Positions 1 through 15,398 of a stretch of DNA of 64,000 bases are shown in pieces (within the stretch, counting starts at the first letter, position 1; each line of letters starts with the position of its first letter). This DNA is from a phage. The notes under the pieces were generated by a model, which worked only from the letters and a program-made list of their open reading frames with translations, did not search any database and had not been told where the DNA came from. The DNA lies in the NCBI GenBank assembly GCA_037574385.1, contig GCA_037574385.1_4529.1. One strand, written 5' to 3'. A program made the position numbers and the translations under genes.

Positions 1-234
1 ACTAATACGACCATTGGTACCTCTGTTTCTAAATGTCCTGACAATACACCGATAAAAATTTGATCAGTGTGCTCAGGGTCACGAAAGTTTTTAAGAGGTT
101 CCATAGCAATATGGAATGCACCTGGGAATACTCGATTCAATTCGTCAATCACAGCTTCGTTAAAAACATCATCTGCCGGGATAACATCTTCAACTACTAG
201 TTCTTGACCATTAAAGCGAAGCATAGATTTCATA
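1..234 (-). CDS. Hypothetical protein, 5' part only (continues beyond window start)
   Basis: ATG near 234 preceded by SD GAGGAAA and an early-promoter module; open frame runs to position 1 (MKSMLRFNGQELVVEDVIPADD...). Not in ORF track because no stop in window. Confidence 0.5.
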
Positions 235-262
235 ACGTTTTCCTCATGTTGTTGATGGGATG

Positions 263-292
263 ATAGTATCACACATCCATGTGTTTGTAAAC
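263..292 (-). promoter_or_regulatory. Early promoter module (PeSL-like): -35 GTTTAC, 18-nt spacer, -10 TACTAT
   Basis: - strand reads GTTTACAAACACATGGATGTGTGATACTATCATCCCATCAACAACATGAGGAAAACGTTATG. Confidence 0.55.
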
Positions 293-2379
293 TATCCTTG
301 GACAAATTTAAACGGAACCGATTCCAAATCCATTAAAGATGCTAACAGTTTCAATCCTTTAGGTGCACTGTTTATTTCTACGAATGAGGCAAAAGATACC
401 GGCTCATCTGATTCGATTTCACCCGTCATAGCAACCACCTCGCCTGTTTCCATGAGAACATCACCGTCGTAAATGACTGCTTCATCCAACTGGTCAGAGG
501 ACATGACTTCGGCTTGAATAAATTTAAGGTTGGATTCTAAACCTGCACCAGTGTCAGATGACGCATCTGTAATTTTATTTATCTGCAAGAGAATGCCTCT
601 AGGCAAAATAATTTCTTGCTCATTAGGGTGATTACTCAACTGTCCTGGATAAATCACGTTAACTTTATGAGCACCATCAATAGCCCATCCAACGTTAACA
701 CGGATTTGTTCTGGTGCATGCATAGCTGTTCTTACTTGACTAGGAGAAATAGTAACACCTTCGTCATTATTGTCAATGTTAAGCTCTTTGCGAACTTCTT
801 CAGGAGCAAGTCCAAGGGCAACGTTTTCTTTAAACCCGCCAAAAATAATAGGAGCTAATGAAGTAGAAACATAGTTTCTGAAGTAGAATACCTTATTTTT
901 AACCATTGCTTCATAAATAGGCATTCTGATAGACTGAGCTCTATACAACGTTAGTCCTTCAGGTAAACGGTCTCCGTTTAAAAACGCTGAATCAAGACCA
1001 TCAATAGCGCGTTTAACTTCATCTTCATCTGCAACATCGTAAAAATCTGGTTTATAACGTCCTAACAACATATTATTGATATCGGTATACGCAGAAGAGG
1101 CATATTCACGAATAGCTCGTTTTTCAGCAACAGAGTATTGTTTAGGGTCCCGATTCATTGTTATATTAAAGGTGCCTCTAGCCGATTCTCGTGCATAAGT
1201 ATACATCACATTAGACAAGAACGCTGATTTACGTTGTTTCCAAGTTTTTTCAGATACTTCAGCTAAAACGTCGTCAGCCAGTTGGAAATTATCTCGTCTA
1301 AAATCTTCAAACCATTCGTCTTTAATAGAGTCTGCAATTTCGTTTGCAGCTTCAACAAAAGCAGCTAATGCTTTAACAGATGTTGTTTTTTCGGTTTTAA
1401 TTTTCTTAGCAAACTTTTCTAAAGTTGGCTTAATAACACTACCATAAGAAACTTCATCAGCAAATCTAAAGGATTCATCAATACGATTATAAATCTTATT
1501 TTCGATATCAGCAACTAAAGTGCCTTTTGCTGTGGATGATGCTTGGGCTAGTACGATTTCATATGCTTCAGGAAGTAATTCGGCTGTAGCTGGGCCACTA
1601 ACTTCTTTAGCAGAATTTTCGTATTTCTGGAATAACTCACCTTCTTGGCGGTCAGCTTCTAAAGATTGGCTTGCTGCAATAGCACGACGAGAAATTTTAG
1701 TATGAGCAATAACAGGCTTATCTTTACGTTTTTCTTCTACAGCAGCAATAGAACCAGCGATAGCAGTTTCTTTGGTGACCGTTTCGCCGGTCTTTTTACT
1801 CACATAAACTTCGCCAACATCAGAATCTACTTTCGTGTACAACTCTGTGTTAATGTTAGGGATGCCTTTAATATCTTCAATGTTGGCATTTTTACGAACC
1901 ATCATCACATAGGTGTGTTTACCTGTGAATTGATACATTGCAGACAATACTTTAAAACGACCACCAGTTTTAGTAGAAACTAAACGAGCAAGAAGAGTTT
2001 GAAGCTGCTGACCACGTCCTTTCAATTTCTTGGTAGGGAATCGGAACAGAACTGCATCCATACGAAGAGCTTTAACCTGTTCATATACTGTATTGAAAAT
2101 GGTGTTGATTGCATCAATAGGAGCAGGACCAAGGCCATTTTTCAATTCAGCGAGATTACCCTTTTCAGACAGACTCATAATAACAACATGAGCATATTTA
2201 TCGCCAAGTTTAACTTGTTTTACAGCGTCGCCTTCAGAAAGGTAAGAGAATAAGCGAACTACGATGTTTGTATCGATATCACCAATTTTCCAGACTTGTG
2301 GAACTTTAGCTTTAGGGTTCAAATTGACGACAGGAAGACTGCCTTCAGATTCAAACACTTCATTTAATTGTTCAGACAT
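292..2379 (-). CDS. alt: Alt-like ADP-ribosyltransferase (packaged internal head protein)
   Basis: 695 aa; size and sequence character match T4 Alt (682 aa); lies immediately downstream of DNA ligase as in T4. Confidence 0.8.
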   Translation of the reverse strand: MSEQLNEVFESEGSLPVVNLNPKAKVPQVWKIGDIDTNIVVRLFSYLSEGDAVKQVKLGDKYAHVVIMSLSEKGNLAELKNGLGPAPIDAINTIFNTVYEQVKALRMDAVLFRFPTKKLKGRGQQLQTLLARLVSTKTGGRFKVLSAMYQFTGKHTYVMMVRKNANIEDIKGIPNINTELYTKVDSDVGEVYVSKKTGETVTKETAIAGSIAAVEEKRKDKPVIAHTKISRRAIAASQSLEADRQEGELFQKYENSAKEVSGPATAELLPEAYEIVLAQASSTAKGTLVADIENKIYNRIDESFRFADEVSYGSVIKPTLEKFAKKIKTEKTTSVKALAAFVEAANEIADSIKDEWFEDFRRDNFQLADDVLAEVSEKTWKQRKSAFLSNVMYTYARESARGTFNITMNRDPKQYSVAEKRAIREYASSAYTDINNMLLGRYKPDFYDVADEDEVKRAIDGLDSAFLNGDRLPEGLTLYRAQSIRMPIYEAMVKNKVFYFRNYVSTSLAPIIFGGFKENVALGLAPEEVRKELNIDNNDEGVTISPSQVRTAMHAPEQIRVNVGWAIDGAHKVNVIYPGQLSNHPNEQEIILPRGILLQINKITDASSDTGAGLESNLKFIQAEVMSSDQLDEAVIYDGDVLMETGEVVAMTGEIESDEPVSFASFVEINSAPKGLKLLASLMDLESVPFKFVQG

Positions 2380-2435: not shown

Positions 2436-2644
2436 TAATCCACAATCGGGAGCAAAGTACGATAAACTTCAAAATTAGGGCCTTTTTCGTACCCATTAAC
2501 GTTATCTACGAAAACCCGATACGAATTTTCATTAGGAAAATCTAATATAATCTGAGAGCAAGAGGTGGAAACATCTCCACCATCCTTCTTAGCTACAATA
2601 ACTGTTTCTAAATAAGCTTTCATTATAAACCTGTCTGGGACCAC
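2435..2644 (-). CDS. Hypothetical small protein
   Basis: 69-aa ORF between ligase and alt; start probably an internal Met (MKAYLE) because the tracked start overlaps the ligase 3' end. Confidence 0.4.
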   Translation of the reverse strand: MVPDRFIMKAYLETVIVAKKDGGDVSTSCSQIILDFPNENSYRVFVDNVNGYEKGPNFEVYRTLLPIVD

Positions 2645-4116
2645 GGTCCAAATACGTCTTCAAACGAATCCGCTTCTGTTTTATCAAAACGGAACCCTTT
2701 AATAATTGGAAGGAAAATACCTACAGTACCTTCACGGCCTTTAGAATGAACCCAACCATTACATTCGCAATCAGCAATACGTCCGATCAATTTACCTTCA
2801 CGAGCTTCGGTCATTAATCGTTCACGGTCTAAATCATGACGCTCGTCTAAAGGAATAAGAACCTTTACACCGTCAACTGTTTTATGAGTTGTATCTTTAA
2901 AACCTGAACCACAATCGGTTGTAATACGACGACAACGTGATACGAGTTCGACACCGCCTAATTTGTTAGGGTCTTTAGAGTGTTCATAGTATCCTACAAC
3001 TTCTAAAGCGATATCAATAACTTCTTTAAATTTAATTAGGTTCTTAGAGCGTTTGTTTTCCCAATATGAATCACGGTTTTTAAGGATAATACCTTCAAGA
3101 CCTTGGTCAACATATTTTTTATAAACCACTTTAGCTTCATCAAGATTACGAACTAACTGGTTTTCGATAGGTTCAATTCGTTTAAAGCCTTCAGCCATAT
3201 TTTCAAGAGCAGCAAAACGAACATCGTATTTCTGACCTTTAATTTTGCCATCAGAATAGACTTCATCTAAAGGAACATAGTCCCAGGCTTGAAGAACCAT
3301 ACCTTCCGCTTCTTTAGGAGAAATAGTCCCTTGAAGAGATTTATTTGCTAAACCATTTGAAGTGCTACGGTCTGCAACTTGTACTTCTTCGGATTCTTCA
3401 TTATCACCAAATAAGAACGACAGGTCATTTCCTGAGCTCACAGCCTTTTTAATATCAAATGAATGATAAACTAATTCACCATCAATTAAAACCCCATTAG
3501 GGTGTCTTTCACGAGCTTCTTTAGTCATTTCCATTAGTTCATCTGCTAATAGGGTAAGACCATGGTATTCGTTACCGGCGCGAGAAAAGAATTGAACACC
3601 ATCATCGCGAACTTCAGCGAAACAACGAGCACCATCTGCTTTTAATTGGGCAAATGCGGGCCATTTAATATTTTTAGTAATCAATTTCTCATCATATGCA
3701 GATGCTAACATCTGTGGTTGCAATTGAATAAGACCAGGCCACACCTTATTCGCGATAGACACTGAAGCACCTACTTCAAGGTCGCGCATCATTACACGAC
3801 GAAGGACTTCTACATCATCAGGTTTACCATCAGCGATATAACCCATGAGCTCTTTAATTGCAGCATTACCAGTGAGTTTACGAGTGGCTAATGTGAACTC
3901 AATAAAATCCAACATGTCATCTAATTCAAGAAGACCATATGCTTGGGACCTTTCACCTGGTCCTGGCCATTTCTTAATATAATACTGGATACCACGTGCA
4001 TATGTTAAACGATACACACGTTCAAGTAATTTGTTGTCCTTATTTTTCTTAAGGATTTCCTGTTTTGTTTTAGTAGAACCGATCGCAGCTATTTGGTTTA
4101 AAATATCTAAAATCAT
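2623..4116 (-). CDS. 30: ATP-dependent DNA ligase
   Basis: 497 aa; adenylation motif KADGAR (KxDG); strong overall resemblance to T4 gp30 (487 aa). Confidence 0.85.
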   Translation of the reverse strand: MILDILNQIAAIGSTKTKQEILKKNKDNKLLERVYRLTYARGIQYYIKKWPGPGERSQAYGLLELDDMLDFIEFTLATRKLTGNAAIKELMGYIADGKPDDVEVLRRVMMRDLEVGASVSIANKVWPGLIQLQPQMLASAYDEKLITKNIKWPAFAQLKADGARCFAEVRDDGVQFFSRAGNEYHGLTLLADELMEMTKEARERHPNGVLIDGELVYHSFDIKKAVSSGNDLSFLFGDNEESEEVQVADRSTSNGLANKSLQGTISPKEAEGMVLQAWDYVPLDEVYSDGKIKGQKYDVRFAALENMAEGFKRIEPIENQLVRNLDEAKVVYKKYVDQGLEGIILKNRDSYWENKRSKNLIKFKEVIDIALEVVGYYEHSKDPNKLGGVELVSRCRRITTDCGSGFKDTTHKTVDGVKVLIPLDERHDLDRERLMTEAREGKLIGRIADCECNGWVHSKGREGTVGIFLPIIKGFRFDKTEADSFEDVFGPWSQTGL

Positions 4117-4382
4117 TTGATGTCCTCGATTTTGGTTACGGTTCTATTATAAGCCACTTCATCTAGAAGCGATTTCAGCGTTTTCTGATAAGTGGTAATC
4201 CGTTTACCGAGTCCTTCAACATAATATTCTGAAATGTAGATAAACCCTTGTTCAACACACTCTTTAAATATTTCTGCGTCTTTTACTGAACGAAACAACG
4301 GCCAGTCTCGAAAGAACATGTTAACGTGACCGTAGTCACGTATGGTATTTTTGCCATCTGTAATATCATGAACTACAAACAT
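4113..4382 (-). CDS. Hypothetical protein
   Basis: 89-aa ORF overlapping ligase start by 4 nt (translational coupling). Confidence 0.5.
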   Translation of the reverse strand: MFVVHDITDGKNTIRDYGHVNMFFRDWPLFRSVKDAEIFKECVEQGFIYISEYYVEGLGKRITTYQKTLKSLLDEVAYNRTVTKIEDIK

Positions 4383-4391
4383 AATTAACCC

Positions 4392-5210
4392 TTAACAATT
4401 TATAGTCCATTTAGACGAATCTAAAGGAAAGTTTTGAATCGTCCACCATGGCTGCATATCGGTTGGTCCTGGGGTTCGCCAGGTATATGGAGTACGTGTT
4501 GTCGAGGGGCCACCAATTTGATTAGGCCATGCACCTGGACTTGTTGCACCAGATTCTTTAAGCAAATCCGCCAATCGTTTTAAAAGGTCTTCACGATCTG
4601 AATCCGAATTATGCTCGGGTGGAACCAAACGAGATTCAATATCATCCCACGTGTGTACACGTTGTGCAGTACGAGGAATATCATCACGTTCACCACGGGC
4701 CAACCAATAAATCGGTACATTAAGAATTTCTGCCGCATGGTCACAATGATGAGCTAAATCGTCAACGTAACAAATTACGTTATATTTTGTTTTAGCTAGT
4801 TCGAATAATTGTTCCTTTGAAGAATCATGACCACACATCATTACTTCAGAGAAAGCGCCTGGGAACAAAGCATTCAAATTAAATTGTCTATTCAATCGAG
4901 CATCAATTGAATCACCTAACGCCGTTACGGCTACAAAATTATAGTCTTCTTTTAGTTTATTGATAACTCGAAGAGCATCCGAATAAGGCGCTAAGTAACG
5001 AATAAAATCAGAGCGATTATATTTTTCTATTAATTGTTTACCAAGGTTATCGTCGGTATTGAATAGTTTACCAGGAGAAATAAATTTTTCGTCCTGAATC
5101 ATTTTTAAAATATGTTCTAATGGAAGATTATATTTTTGGGCAAAATAAGGAAGTCCAGATTGCCAGCTTAAACATACACCATCAATATCAGTCAAAATAG
5201 TAGGCTTCAT
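4392..5210 (-). CDS. HAD-superfamily phosphatase-like protein with Pro/Trp/Thr-rich C-terminal tail
   Basis: 272 aa; HAD motif I ILTDIDGV near N-terminus and a DD motif (ICYVDDLAHH); 4-nt overlap with the downstream NADAR-like gene. Confidence 0.6.
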   Translation of the reverse strand: MKPTILTDIDGVCLSWQSGLPYFAQKYNLPLEHILKMIQDEKFISPGKLFNTDDNLGKQLIEKYNRSDFIRYLAPYSDALRVINKLKEDYNFVAVTALGDSIDARLNRQFNLNALFPGAFSEVMMCGHDSSKEQLFELAKTKYNVICYVDDLAHHCDHAAEILNVPIYWLARGERDDIPRTAQRVHTWDDIESRLVPPEHNSDSDREDLLKRLADLLKESGATSPGAWPNQIGGPSTTRTPYTWRTPGPTDMQPWWTIQNFPLDSSKWTINC

Positions 5211-5674
5211 AAAGAGTCTCTTAATAGGTTTAACACATCAATAAATTCAGCTTCAGTTAGTATTGTATCATCTTTTGTTAGGTGGCTGGCCATGCTATGC
5301 TTCAAAATTTTTCCTTTAGAGGCTTGTAAGGCATCGCGAAACCCCTTGTTTTGGATCGCTGCTTCAAAATATGCATTTGTGTATAATTCTTTCCACGCTT
5401 CAGAGTATCTTGAAAATGGAACTCCTAACCAGAAGAGAGTCCCATAGTCCTGAGCTCTTGCATAAGACCTTCCAGCTTGCTGTGCAGCCAATCCAGACAA
5501 CCCAAATATACGTCTTTGATGTTCAACATTTTTCACCTTACATCCTTGGAGAAATCCTTCAAGACCTCCGAATTGAATACCATCCATGACAAAAGGCCAT
5601 TGGGCGAAATTACTTAATGCACATGACGGCCATTTGAAATTACTTCTTATTTCTAATTCAGACATCTTTAACAC
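5207..5674 (-). CDS. NADAR / YbiA-like (DUF1768) domain protein
   Basis: 155 aa; LSNFAQWPFVMDGIQFGGLEGFLQGCKV aligns with E. coli YbiA FSNFAAWPIKVDGKTWPTSEHYFQAQKF; further matches downstream (RRIFGLSGLAAQQAGR). Confidence 0.65.
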   Translation of the reverse strand: MLKMSELEIRSNFKWPSCALSNFAQWPFVMDGIQFGGLEGFLQGCKVKNVEHQRRIFGLSGLAAQQAGRSYARAQDYGTLFWLGVPFSRYSEAWKELYTNAYFEAAIQNKGFRDALQASKGKILKHSMASHLTKDDTILTEAEFIDVLNLLRDSL

Positions 5675-5864
5675 TTATAATTTCAACATCAGCCCAATGA
5701 CCATAACCAGGTATACGGTCTTCGATAGATAAATTTCCGTCATTTTTAGGCATTTTAATTGACGTAATGTATGGTTCTAAACGGTTTTCTGCATAATATG
5801 GAAAAACGTCTGTTACACGATAAGTAACTTCAATCATTTCCGTACCAAACAATTTCTTAAGCAT
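5658..5864 (-). CDS. Hypothetical protein
   Basis: 68-aa ORF in gene-dense - strand array. Confidence 0.45.
   Translation of the reverse strand: MLKKLFGTEMIEVTYRVTDVFPYYAENRLEPYITSIKMPKNDGNLSIEDRIPGYGHWADVEIISVKDV

Positions 5865-11411: not shown

Positions 11412-11412
<1 letters not shown>
11221..11412 (-). CDS. Hypothetical protein
   Basis: 63-aa ORF abutting pseT stop. Confidence 0.4.
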
Positions 11413-12498
<1,086 letters not shown>

Positions 12499-12499
<1 letters not shown>

Positions 12500-12798
12500 T
12501 ATTTTATTCCTAAGAAAGCTTCAAGAATACGAATGTTATGTTCGCGCCGGTCTTTATTAATTTCAGCAACGTTTTTATTAATTGACGTACTTCTAACGTT
12601 TGAAGAAATAAATTTAATCATATGACTTTTGAGTTGTTGCAAATCCAACCCTTTTTCTTTAGCAGCTTTACGAAGAGCTTTACCTGCTTCGTCTAGGGCC
12701 TTTGCTGCATCTTTATCATAATTGACAAGTGACATTCCACGGCAGATATCAATATACTCATCTGACCGTTTGATATAATTCTCTAGTAATGTTTTCAT
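12499..12798 (-). CDS. Hypothetical protein
   Basis: 99-aa ORF with PeSL-type early promoter (GTTTAC-N18-TATAAT) directly upstream. Confidence 0.5.

Positions 12799-14264: not shown

Positions 14265-15398
<1,134 letters not shown>

Follow-up and report, generated by a model that had tools for sequence, protein, structure and literature searches.

In a 64,000-nucleotide (nt) stretch of phage DNA (contig GCA_037574385.1_4529.1, here called the window), we found that the Pro/Trp/Thr-rich end of the gene 30.2 product (gp30.2) is almost certainly a genuine and conserved tail. The reading we favor, to which we assign a probability of about 0.5-0.6, is that this tail is disordered and carries short linear motifs for the docking of a partner. 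Sequence comparisons and structure models underlie this reading, and the combination of a predicted disordered tail, purifying selection weaker than on the core, in-frame insertions and deletions (indels) or module swaps, and conserved aromatic and Pro sites points to a docking tail of the linear-motif kind. The window phage is a Mosigvirus (RB69-like, T-even-type), and its gene 30.2 homologue (4392..5210, minus strand, phrog_420) encodes 272 amino acids (aa) and a stop codon (4392..4394), comprising a HAD phosphatase with a C-terminal helix and the tail.

A first-pass annotation of the same DNA had remarked on this unusual C-terminal end and offered three explanations for it: a genuine disordered tail, a recently acquired segment, or a frame artefact masking a small gene. 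The peptide it quoted corresponds exactly to the last 48 residues (aa 225-272; 4395..4538, minus strand), which we delimit as the tail by composition, low values of the predicted local distance difference test (pLDDT), the ratio of nonsynonymous to synonymous changes (pN/pS) and conservation. The peptide was right, but its range, 4392..4560, was not: it spans 169 nt, which are not whole codons, and adds about seven residues (LKESGATS).

Composition of the tail

Compared with the long open reading frames (ORFs) of the window, the tail is enriched 4.5-fold in Pro (16.7%), 7.1-fold in Trp (10.4%, five Trp in 48 residues) and 2.8-fold in Thr (16.7%). Across the 48-residue segments of all ORFs that reach 150 aa (44 ORFs), a joint Pro, Trp and Thr content of at least 43.75%, or at least five Trp, was confined to the tail, and a six-frame scan of the stop-free stretches of the 64 kilobases (kb) detected no second segment of tail-like composition. 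The tail had also been described as low-complexity, which goes too far for what is a biased composition: its Shannon entropy of 3.70 bits is at the 19th percentile of such segments (mean 3.82 bits, standard deviation 0.17), and it contains 17 residue types and no repeat.

Motifs retained in a fast-evolving tail

We compared 98 cluster representatives of the family together with the window protein (99 sequences). The lengths of their C-terminal extensions were bimodal, with fewer than 25 residues after the core in 36/99 and extensions of at least 45 aa in 58/99. The extensions share a plan, in which an amphipathic helix is followed by a Pro/aromatic-rich region; 44 of the 58 long ones are W/P-rich and 33 carry a W-x-(x)-P motif. 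Aligning 24 diverse tails gave a mean column identity of 24%. In both of our tail alignments (A2 and A3), at least 90% of the diverse tails keep W244 (alignment position W25), and P254 (P35) reaches this level in A2 only, the alignment of 24 tails.

The tail alignments revealed two conserved motifs. The first, Φ-x-W-P (A227-W228-P229; 4524..4532, minus strand), has the counterparts FPWN in T4 and FPWP, NWP, QWP and NWPP in other genera. The second, P-x-x-W-[RKV]-x-P-G ... P-[WY]-[WY] (P241-YTWRTPGPTDMQP-W255-W256; 4443..4490, minus strand), is the core motif. Mosigvirus and T4-type phages share its TWRTPG residue for residue although the codons differ synonymously (CGA/AGA, ACC/ACG/ACT and CCA/CCT), which shows selection on the peptide. 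Related tails with shared motifs are found in T4 (Tequatrovirus), Karamvirus, Gaprivervirus-like and Jiaodavirus phages.

By comparison of alleles, the C-terminal end of the tail (TIQNFPLDSSKWTINC; 4395..4442, minus strand) is hypervariable. Mosigvirus tails end in TIQNFPLDSSKW(TWS)INC, and the window carries a rare allele without the 'WS' of most Mosigvirus; compared with LF82-3 and others, 6 nt are deleted here. The C-terminal GTGIEYLNRQPT motif of many other genera is absent from the Mosigvirus tail. Many genera, among them Karamvirus, Gaprivervirus-like phages and several groups known only from metagenomes, end their tails with G-T-G-I-E-Y-L-N-R-Q-P-T and a few more residues, and the Tequatrovirus version of this motif is GGVEYLYNRPT.

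In the Escherichia phages HX01 and AV114 (our loci L018 and L017; locus positions ~1060-1137) the unrelated PHWRYTNVGEHPVPPYWAVPQGYGTTKG takes the place of the last ~20 tail residues. The replacement is a non-alignable cassette of ~80 nt flanked by conserved DNA, and its right bound is the ribosome-binding region of gene 30.1, TAAGGGTTAATTATG. We considered whether the HX01-type C-terminus could be a frameshifted form of that of the window and rejected this, as the DNA does not align over ~80 nt, which indicates replacement. The extreme C-terminus is thus exchangeable, while aa 225-254 are retained. Quite different C-terminal additions occur in gp30.2 of the Yersinia phage phiR1-RT type (P0065/P0066; L060, L095) and in P0081; such additions include a domain of ~110 aa without a Pfam match and a 150-aa Cys-rich extension ending in CGGAPWCCP. 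It seems that the C-terminus of gp30.2 is a preferred place for accessory modules.

The proteins from T4 ('uncharacterized 32.4 kDa protein', 279 aa) and RB69 are the best-known relatives; like the window protein they belong to phrog_420 and are encoded between 30.3/AdfN and 30.1/DNA ligase. The cores of T4 and window gp30.2 are 72-74% identical, and both proteins consist of a core, a helix and a W/P tail with an identical TWRTPG. The T4 tail differs from that of the window in being longer, in its richness in His and Tyr, and in keeping a G-[IV]-EYL-x-N-[RQ]-PT motif that was lost in Mosigvirus. The window tail shares 87% identity with that of RB69, and RB69 and most Mosigvirus tails differ from it by in-frame indels (TTR, WS). 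Judged by sequence, the window tail is best regarded as the Mosigvirus version of the extension carried by T4 itself.

The tail type of the window is present in 152 phage records, RB69 included, at one place per genome and always in 30.2; it is conserved in ~150 Mosigvirus genomes. In a tblastn search of 50,697 phage records, two tail types used as queries had no match outside 30.2, and a word-index profile search with the 24 tails for their occurrence in other proteins returned only two gp30.2 fragments. An hmmsearch with a 65-position tail profile against 1.84 billion representatives reported one spurious repeat protein, but this search was too insensitive to serve as a firm negative, since at such a database size it missed even true gp30.2 at E<=1e-3.

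Reading frame and selection

We examined the frame of the tail in nine Mosigvirus alleles. The annotated frame stays open through the tail in all nine, the variable sites of the tail fall at codon positions 3, 1 and 2 in the ratio 8:1:3, and its indels measure 6 and 9 nt and are in frame. Pooled Nei-Gojobori estimates of pN/pS were obtained for three lineages, giving for the core, the linker/helix and the tail, respectively, 0.02, 0.17 and 0.12 in Mosigvirus, 0.02, 0.37 and 0.26 in T4-type phages, and 0.05, 0.13 and 0.08 in Gaprivervirus-like phages. Selection on the tail is purifying but weaker than on the core. Many GenBank records already list the complete ORF with its tail as a 'hypothetical protein', and the comparison of alleles argues that this annotation is right, with the tail translated and in its true frame.

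Predicted structure and possible role of the tail

The HAD catalytic core with its C1 cap (aa 1-195; 4626..5210, minus strand) was recognized by its motifs, by an AlphaFold2 (AF2) model and by Foldseek. Motif I is D8-I-D10-G-V, motif II is T96, motif III is K132 and motif IV is D150-D151; 70 homologues, tailed and tailless, all keep D8, D10, K132, D150 and D151, and T96 is nearly invariant among them. The AF2 model, built on a 70-sequence alignment, has a mean pLDDT of 85, with values above 90 in the core and cap helices (16-86) inserted between strand 1 and strand 2, as in the C1 type. Foldseek with the modeled core returned 121 PDB hits at E<=1e-3, and all 50 of the top hits listed are HAD-fold proteins. 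The closest solved structures are Bacillus subtilis YfnB (3i76) and the 5'(3')-deoxyribonucleotidases cdN/mdN (2jao, 2i7d, 1q92), with E of ~1e-8 to 1e-6. These have the same C1-capped HAD fold and the DxDxV, T, K and DD motifs; the target-normalized template-modeling (TM) scores are 0.57-0.64, the sequence identity is only 14-17%, and the solved chains of 187-232 residues are about as long as the core, with no room for a comparable tail. The match to 2jao (structural E 7.6e-8, TM 0.47/0.62) is no better than those to other HAD subfamilies, and 2jao scored a non-significant E=0.31 when the family profile was compared with the PDB. The Pfam HAD_2 model (PF13419) gave 15.5 bits (E=0.02), under its 23.8-bit gathering cut-off, because the family is too divergent for this model. 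Membership in the HAD superfamily is therefore argued from the motifs and the predicted fold. As the HAD motifs are kept in homologues with and without tails and the predicted fold is that of a HAD protein, gp30.2 is probably an active phosphatase and the tail an accessory to the enzyme.

In the AF2 model the core is joined to the tail by a linker and an amphipathic alpha-helix (aa 196-224; 4539..4625, minus strand), of which the helix itself comprises aa 203-219 (4554..4604, minus strand; block pLDDT 78-88). The blocks of the tail (aa 225-272) have pLDDT values of 37-58, slightly higher (55-58) in blocks 241-260, where a short helical turn is placed at 255-257. A second AF2 model, of a Karamvirus-type homologue with the complete motif set, gave the same picture, with an equivalent helix (194-223) at 91-93 and a tail at 39-56. 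Together with the Mosigvirus pN/pS of 0.12 and the 152 phage records, these models, in which the tail stands beside a confidently predicted core, support the first of the three explanations, that of a genuine disordered tail. The feature is real but of an ordinary kind: a disordered, lineage-specific tail on a little-studied phage enzyme.

In our reading gp30.2 is built of three parts, a catalytically competent C1-capped HAD phosphatase (aa 1-195), a helix (~203-219) that may be a spacer or an oligomerization element, and the 48-residue disordered tail. Within the gp30.2 family of enterobacterial T-even-like phages the tail is old; it evolves fast by substitution, in-frame indels and swaps of the last ~20 residues and yet retains its short Trp/Pro motifs. 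In the mechanism that we propose, these motifs, Φ-x-W-P, P-x-x-W-[RKV]-x-P-G and P-[WY]-[WY], would act as docking sites that become ordered only when bound by the partner, and docking would tether or regulate the phosphatase. Flexible C-termini with conserved motif islands recruit partners in E. coli SSB, T7 gp2.5, T4 gp32 and the clamp-binding tail of the T4/RB69 polymerase. By analogy, these too are flexible extensions of a folded domain with motif islands in a fast-evolving background; they differ in that they are acidic, or hydrophobic with an aromatic residue at the very end, and have known partners, whereas the window tail is about neutral (+1) and Trp/Pro/Thr-rich. To our knowledge, its motifs match none of the known motifs in the tails of replication proteins.

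gp30.1 as a candidate partner

To get clues about a partner we turned to gene 30.1, which encodes an 89-aa DUF3045 protein directly downstream of 30.2 (4113..4382, minus strand; Pfam DUF3045, E=6.9e-26). In 77 IMG/VR loci, clustered at 80% core identity, all eight clusters with a W/P-type tail (8/8) have a DUF3045 ORF immediately downstream, and none of the clusters without 30.1 (0/23) has such a tail (Fisher's exact p=3e-6, uncorrected for phylogeny). The Raoultella phage Rpl1 (L024, Slopekvirus) has a tailless gp30.2 (204 aa) followed directly by the DNA ligase, without 30.1, and is the clearest case of the joint absence of the two. On a metagenomic contig (L019; Logan SRR21148734_3542831), a 302-aa ORF at 234..1142 joins a tailless 30.2 core to DUF3045 (fused protein P0016); in its relative L043 the two are separate, overlapping ORFs. 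We regard the fusion as weak Rosetta-stone evidence, possibly the product of an indel or an assembly artefact.

The co-occurrence is suggestive, and makes gp30.1 the only candidate partner with any support. That gp30.1 is indeed what the tail docks on is, in our estimate, quite unlikely, and we are about as doubtful that the tail is a docking module which recruits the gp30.2 phosphatase to gp30.1 and thereby into a unit with the DNA ligase and the anti-DarT factor AdfN. If true, such recruitment would connect DNA-damage reversal or anti-defence in T-even phages with a nucleotide phosphatase, and PxxW[RK]xPG...P[WY][WY] would become a new Trp-Pro linear motif with a receptor domain of its own.

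Points against docking and alternative explanations

Several points weigh against a docking role in general and against gp30.1 in particular. A low pLDDT is a prediction for the monomer and no proof of disorder, and we infer docking from a pattern, that of a disordered segment with conserved motif islands. The pN/pS of the tail is 5-10 times that of the core, and its last 16-20 residues are freely replaced. As many relatives do without it, including the 36/99 representatives with fewer than 25 aa after the core, the tail is dispensable for the enzyme itself. As for gp30.1, it is present without the tail in two clusters (L034-39 and L043), and common descent confounds its association with the tail, both being restricted to a single enterobacterial Tevenvirinae-like clade. 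No second fusion came up when we searched with 30.1; the 27 proteins retrieved (67-92 aa) all stand alone.

The tail might instead act in cis or between subunits, folding back to cover the HAD cap or the active site like a lid or an autoinhibitor, or serving oligomerization together with the helix; we consider this unlikely. Tails regulate other HAD enzymes, helix 203-219 is predicted fairly confidently and its Karamvirus equivalent very confidently, and the slightly raised pLDDT of blocks 241-260 with the turn at 255-257 would suit a tail that packs on its own protein. However, no part of the tail reached a pLDDT of 70 in either model, even with alignments of 68-70 sequences, and tailless homologues retain all catalytic motifs, so that the core can dispense with the tail.

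It is improbable that the tail anchors the phosphatase at the inner membrane, with its Trp-rich end at the membrane interface. Five Trp in 48 residues would be in keeping with such an anchor, and the last 19 residues (PWWTIQNFPLDSSKWTINC) have a Wimley-White interfacial sum of -3.0 kcal/mol, one of the lowest in the protein. The sum over the whole tail is +0.11 kcal/mol, i.e., neutral, its net charge is +1 only, its best-conserved motif, TWRTPGPTD, is polar and Pro/Gly-rich, and the hydrophobic end is the very part that is freely swapped between close relatives. Membrane-active Trp/Pro-rich peptides of the indolicidin/tritrpticin type are short and strongly cationic; the tail resembles them in its high Trp and Pro content, PWW included, and differs from them in the charge and interfacial sum just given.

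A translated extension without function, conserved through recent ancestry or through constraints on the DNA such as expression signals of 30.1, appears very unlikely. Such an extension could explain why many members of the family lack a tail and why the tail, where present, is hypervariable at its C-terminal end and exchanged there as a cassette, and a late-promoter-like TATAAATT and the 30.1 ribosome-binding site do lie at or beside the 3' end of the tail's coding sequence. It does not accord with the tail pN/pS of 0.08-0.26 in three separate lineages, nor with the persistence of W244 and P254 across genera whose cores are only 45-55% identical, and the synonymous changes inside TWRTPG are the mark of selection that acts on the protein rather than the DNA. 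Neither was there a sign of an RNA element in the GC-rich stretch, where folding of the mRNA compared with shuffled sequences gave z=-0.71 and an Rfam search had no hit.

The recent acquisition of the tail from a GC-richer source, the second of the original explanations, is highly improbable. The first-pass annotation was correct that GC is raised here: the tail has 47.2% GC against 36.2% in the rest of the gene and 37.8% in the window, which places it at the 97th percentile of 147-nt segments. By codon position, GC is 0.42, 0.67 and 0.33 at positions 1, 2 and 3, respectively, so that the excess lies at the first two. We checked the local GC and codon usage, as had been proposed, by resampling synonymous codons for the tail peptide from the codon usage of the window itself, and the tail matched the usage of the phage. 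The expected GC was 47.8 +/- 2.0% (observed 47.2%) and the expected GC at third codon positions (GC3) 0.349 +/- 0.058 (observed 0.333). The GC bump is a by-product of the codons for Pro (CCN), Trp (TGG), Thr (ACN) and Gly (GGN), and since GC and GC3 are both as predicted from the amino acids and the phage's codon usage, nothing hints at foreign DNA. Similarity in megablast to T4-type genes does end at ~nt 536-570 of 819, but it is lost because the 3' third of the gene evolves faster. The proposed alignment of homologues showed that relatives carry the tail too, with homology at the protein level to the tails of Tequatrovirus, Karamvirus, Gaprivervirus-like and Jiaodavirus phages and a TWRTPG shared with T4-type phages through synonymous codon differences. 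Relatives with the same tail, and a codon usage that fits, thus speak for a genuine tail and against both an acquired segment and a frame artefact.

The last explanation, that 30.2 ends earlier and the region codes for a small gene in another frame or strand, we give hardly any credence: the short alternative-frame ORFs at 4421..4549 (minus strand, 42 aa, GTG start) and 4434..4583 (plus strand, 49 aa, TTG start) have weak start codons and no family hits, the annotated frame is open through very different tails in dozens of lineages, and the third-position bias of substitutions, the in-frame indels of 6 and 9 nt, the pN/pS and the lack of an RNA signal led us to reject a frame artefact and a hidden gene alike. 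A false alarm is hereby removed: neither the GC bump nor the odd peptide goes back to foreign DNA, a frameshift or a hidden gene.

Gene assignment and genomic neighborhood

The protein encoded at 4392..5210 (minus strand) is 100% identical in amino acids to a hypothetical protein of Shigella phage ESh27, 95-99% identical to ~140 other Mosigvirus records and 72-74% identical to gp30.2 of T4-type phages. Its residues 1-259 matched positions 12-247 of the 267-position profile of phrog_420, the T4 gp30.2 family (E=1.4e-78), and homologues in RB69, CC31 and mar005P1 carry the annotation 30.2. The gene order 30.3 - 30.2 - 30.1 - 30 (DNA ligase) is present in the window, where the ligase occupies 2623..4116 (ORF and Pfam matches), and also in LF82-3, mar005P1, PHB12, CJ20 and PKO111. 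On sequence and synteny, the window gene is a member of the T4 gp30.2 family.

NCBIfam and PDB sequence searches with 30.2 and 30.1 gave no significant match, and searches of the literature for the function of gp30.2 or DUF3045 yielded no paper; the one relevant paper that they did find concerns the neighboring 30.3 (5207..5674, minus strand; Pfam Phage_30_3, E=1.7e-68). The product of 30.3 is AdfN, a NADAR anti-DarT factor, and the RB69 copy of gp30.3/AdfN was reported to be truncated by a frameshift, RB69 being sensitive to DarTG1 (PMC11825919). AdfN of the window looks full-length, the Phage_30_3 match spanning profile positions 1-138 of 138. As the copy of the sensitive RB69 is truncated, the window phage, with its full-length AdfN, may be resistant to DarTG1. 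For work on the 30-30.3 cluster, anti-DarT AdfN included, gp30.2 presents itself as a conserved, unstudied HAD phosphatase of T4-like phages with a modular C-terminus and Trp/Pro motifs kept across several genera, and the tail with W244, W255 and W256 offers a concrete handle on the partner and role of the enzyme.

A promoter and terminator scan of 4000..5800 found such sites to be no commoner than in shuffled sequence. The TATAAATT mentioned above, at 4397..4404 (minus strand) in the last codons of 30.2, matches the T4 late-promoter consensus TATAAATA at 7/8 positions, and this may be due to chance. It overlaps the T-I-N-C codons ~20 nt upstream of the 30.1 start, and is kept in the LF82-3-type allele and absent from the HX01-type allele. 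Elsewhere in the window, two long ORFs are antisense to others and are probably spurious: one of 156 aa at 12090..12560 (plus strand, TTG start) overlaps a minus-strand ORF at 11412..12311, and one of 174 aa at 14803..15327 (plus strand, ATG start) overlaps a minus-strand ORF at 14265..15389.

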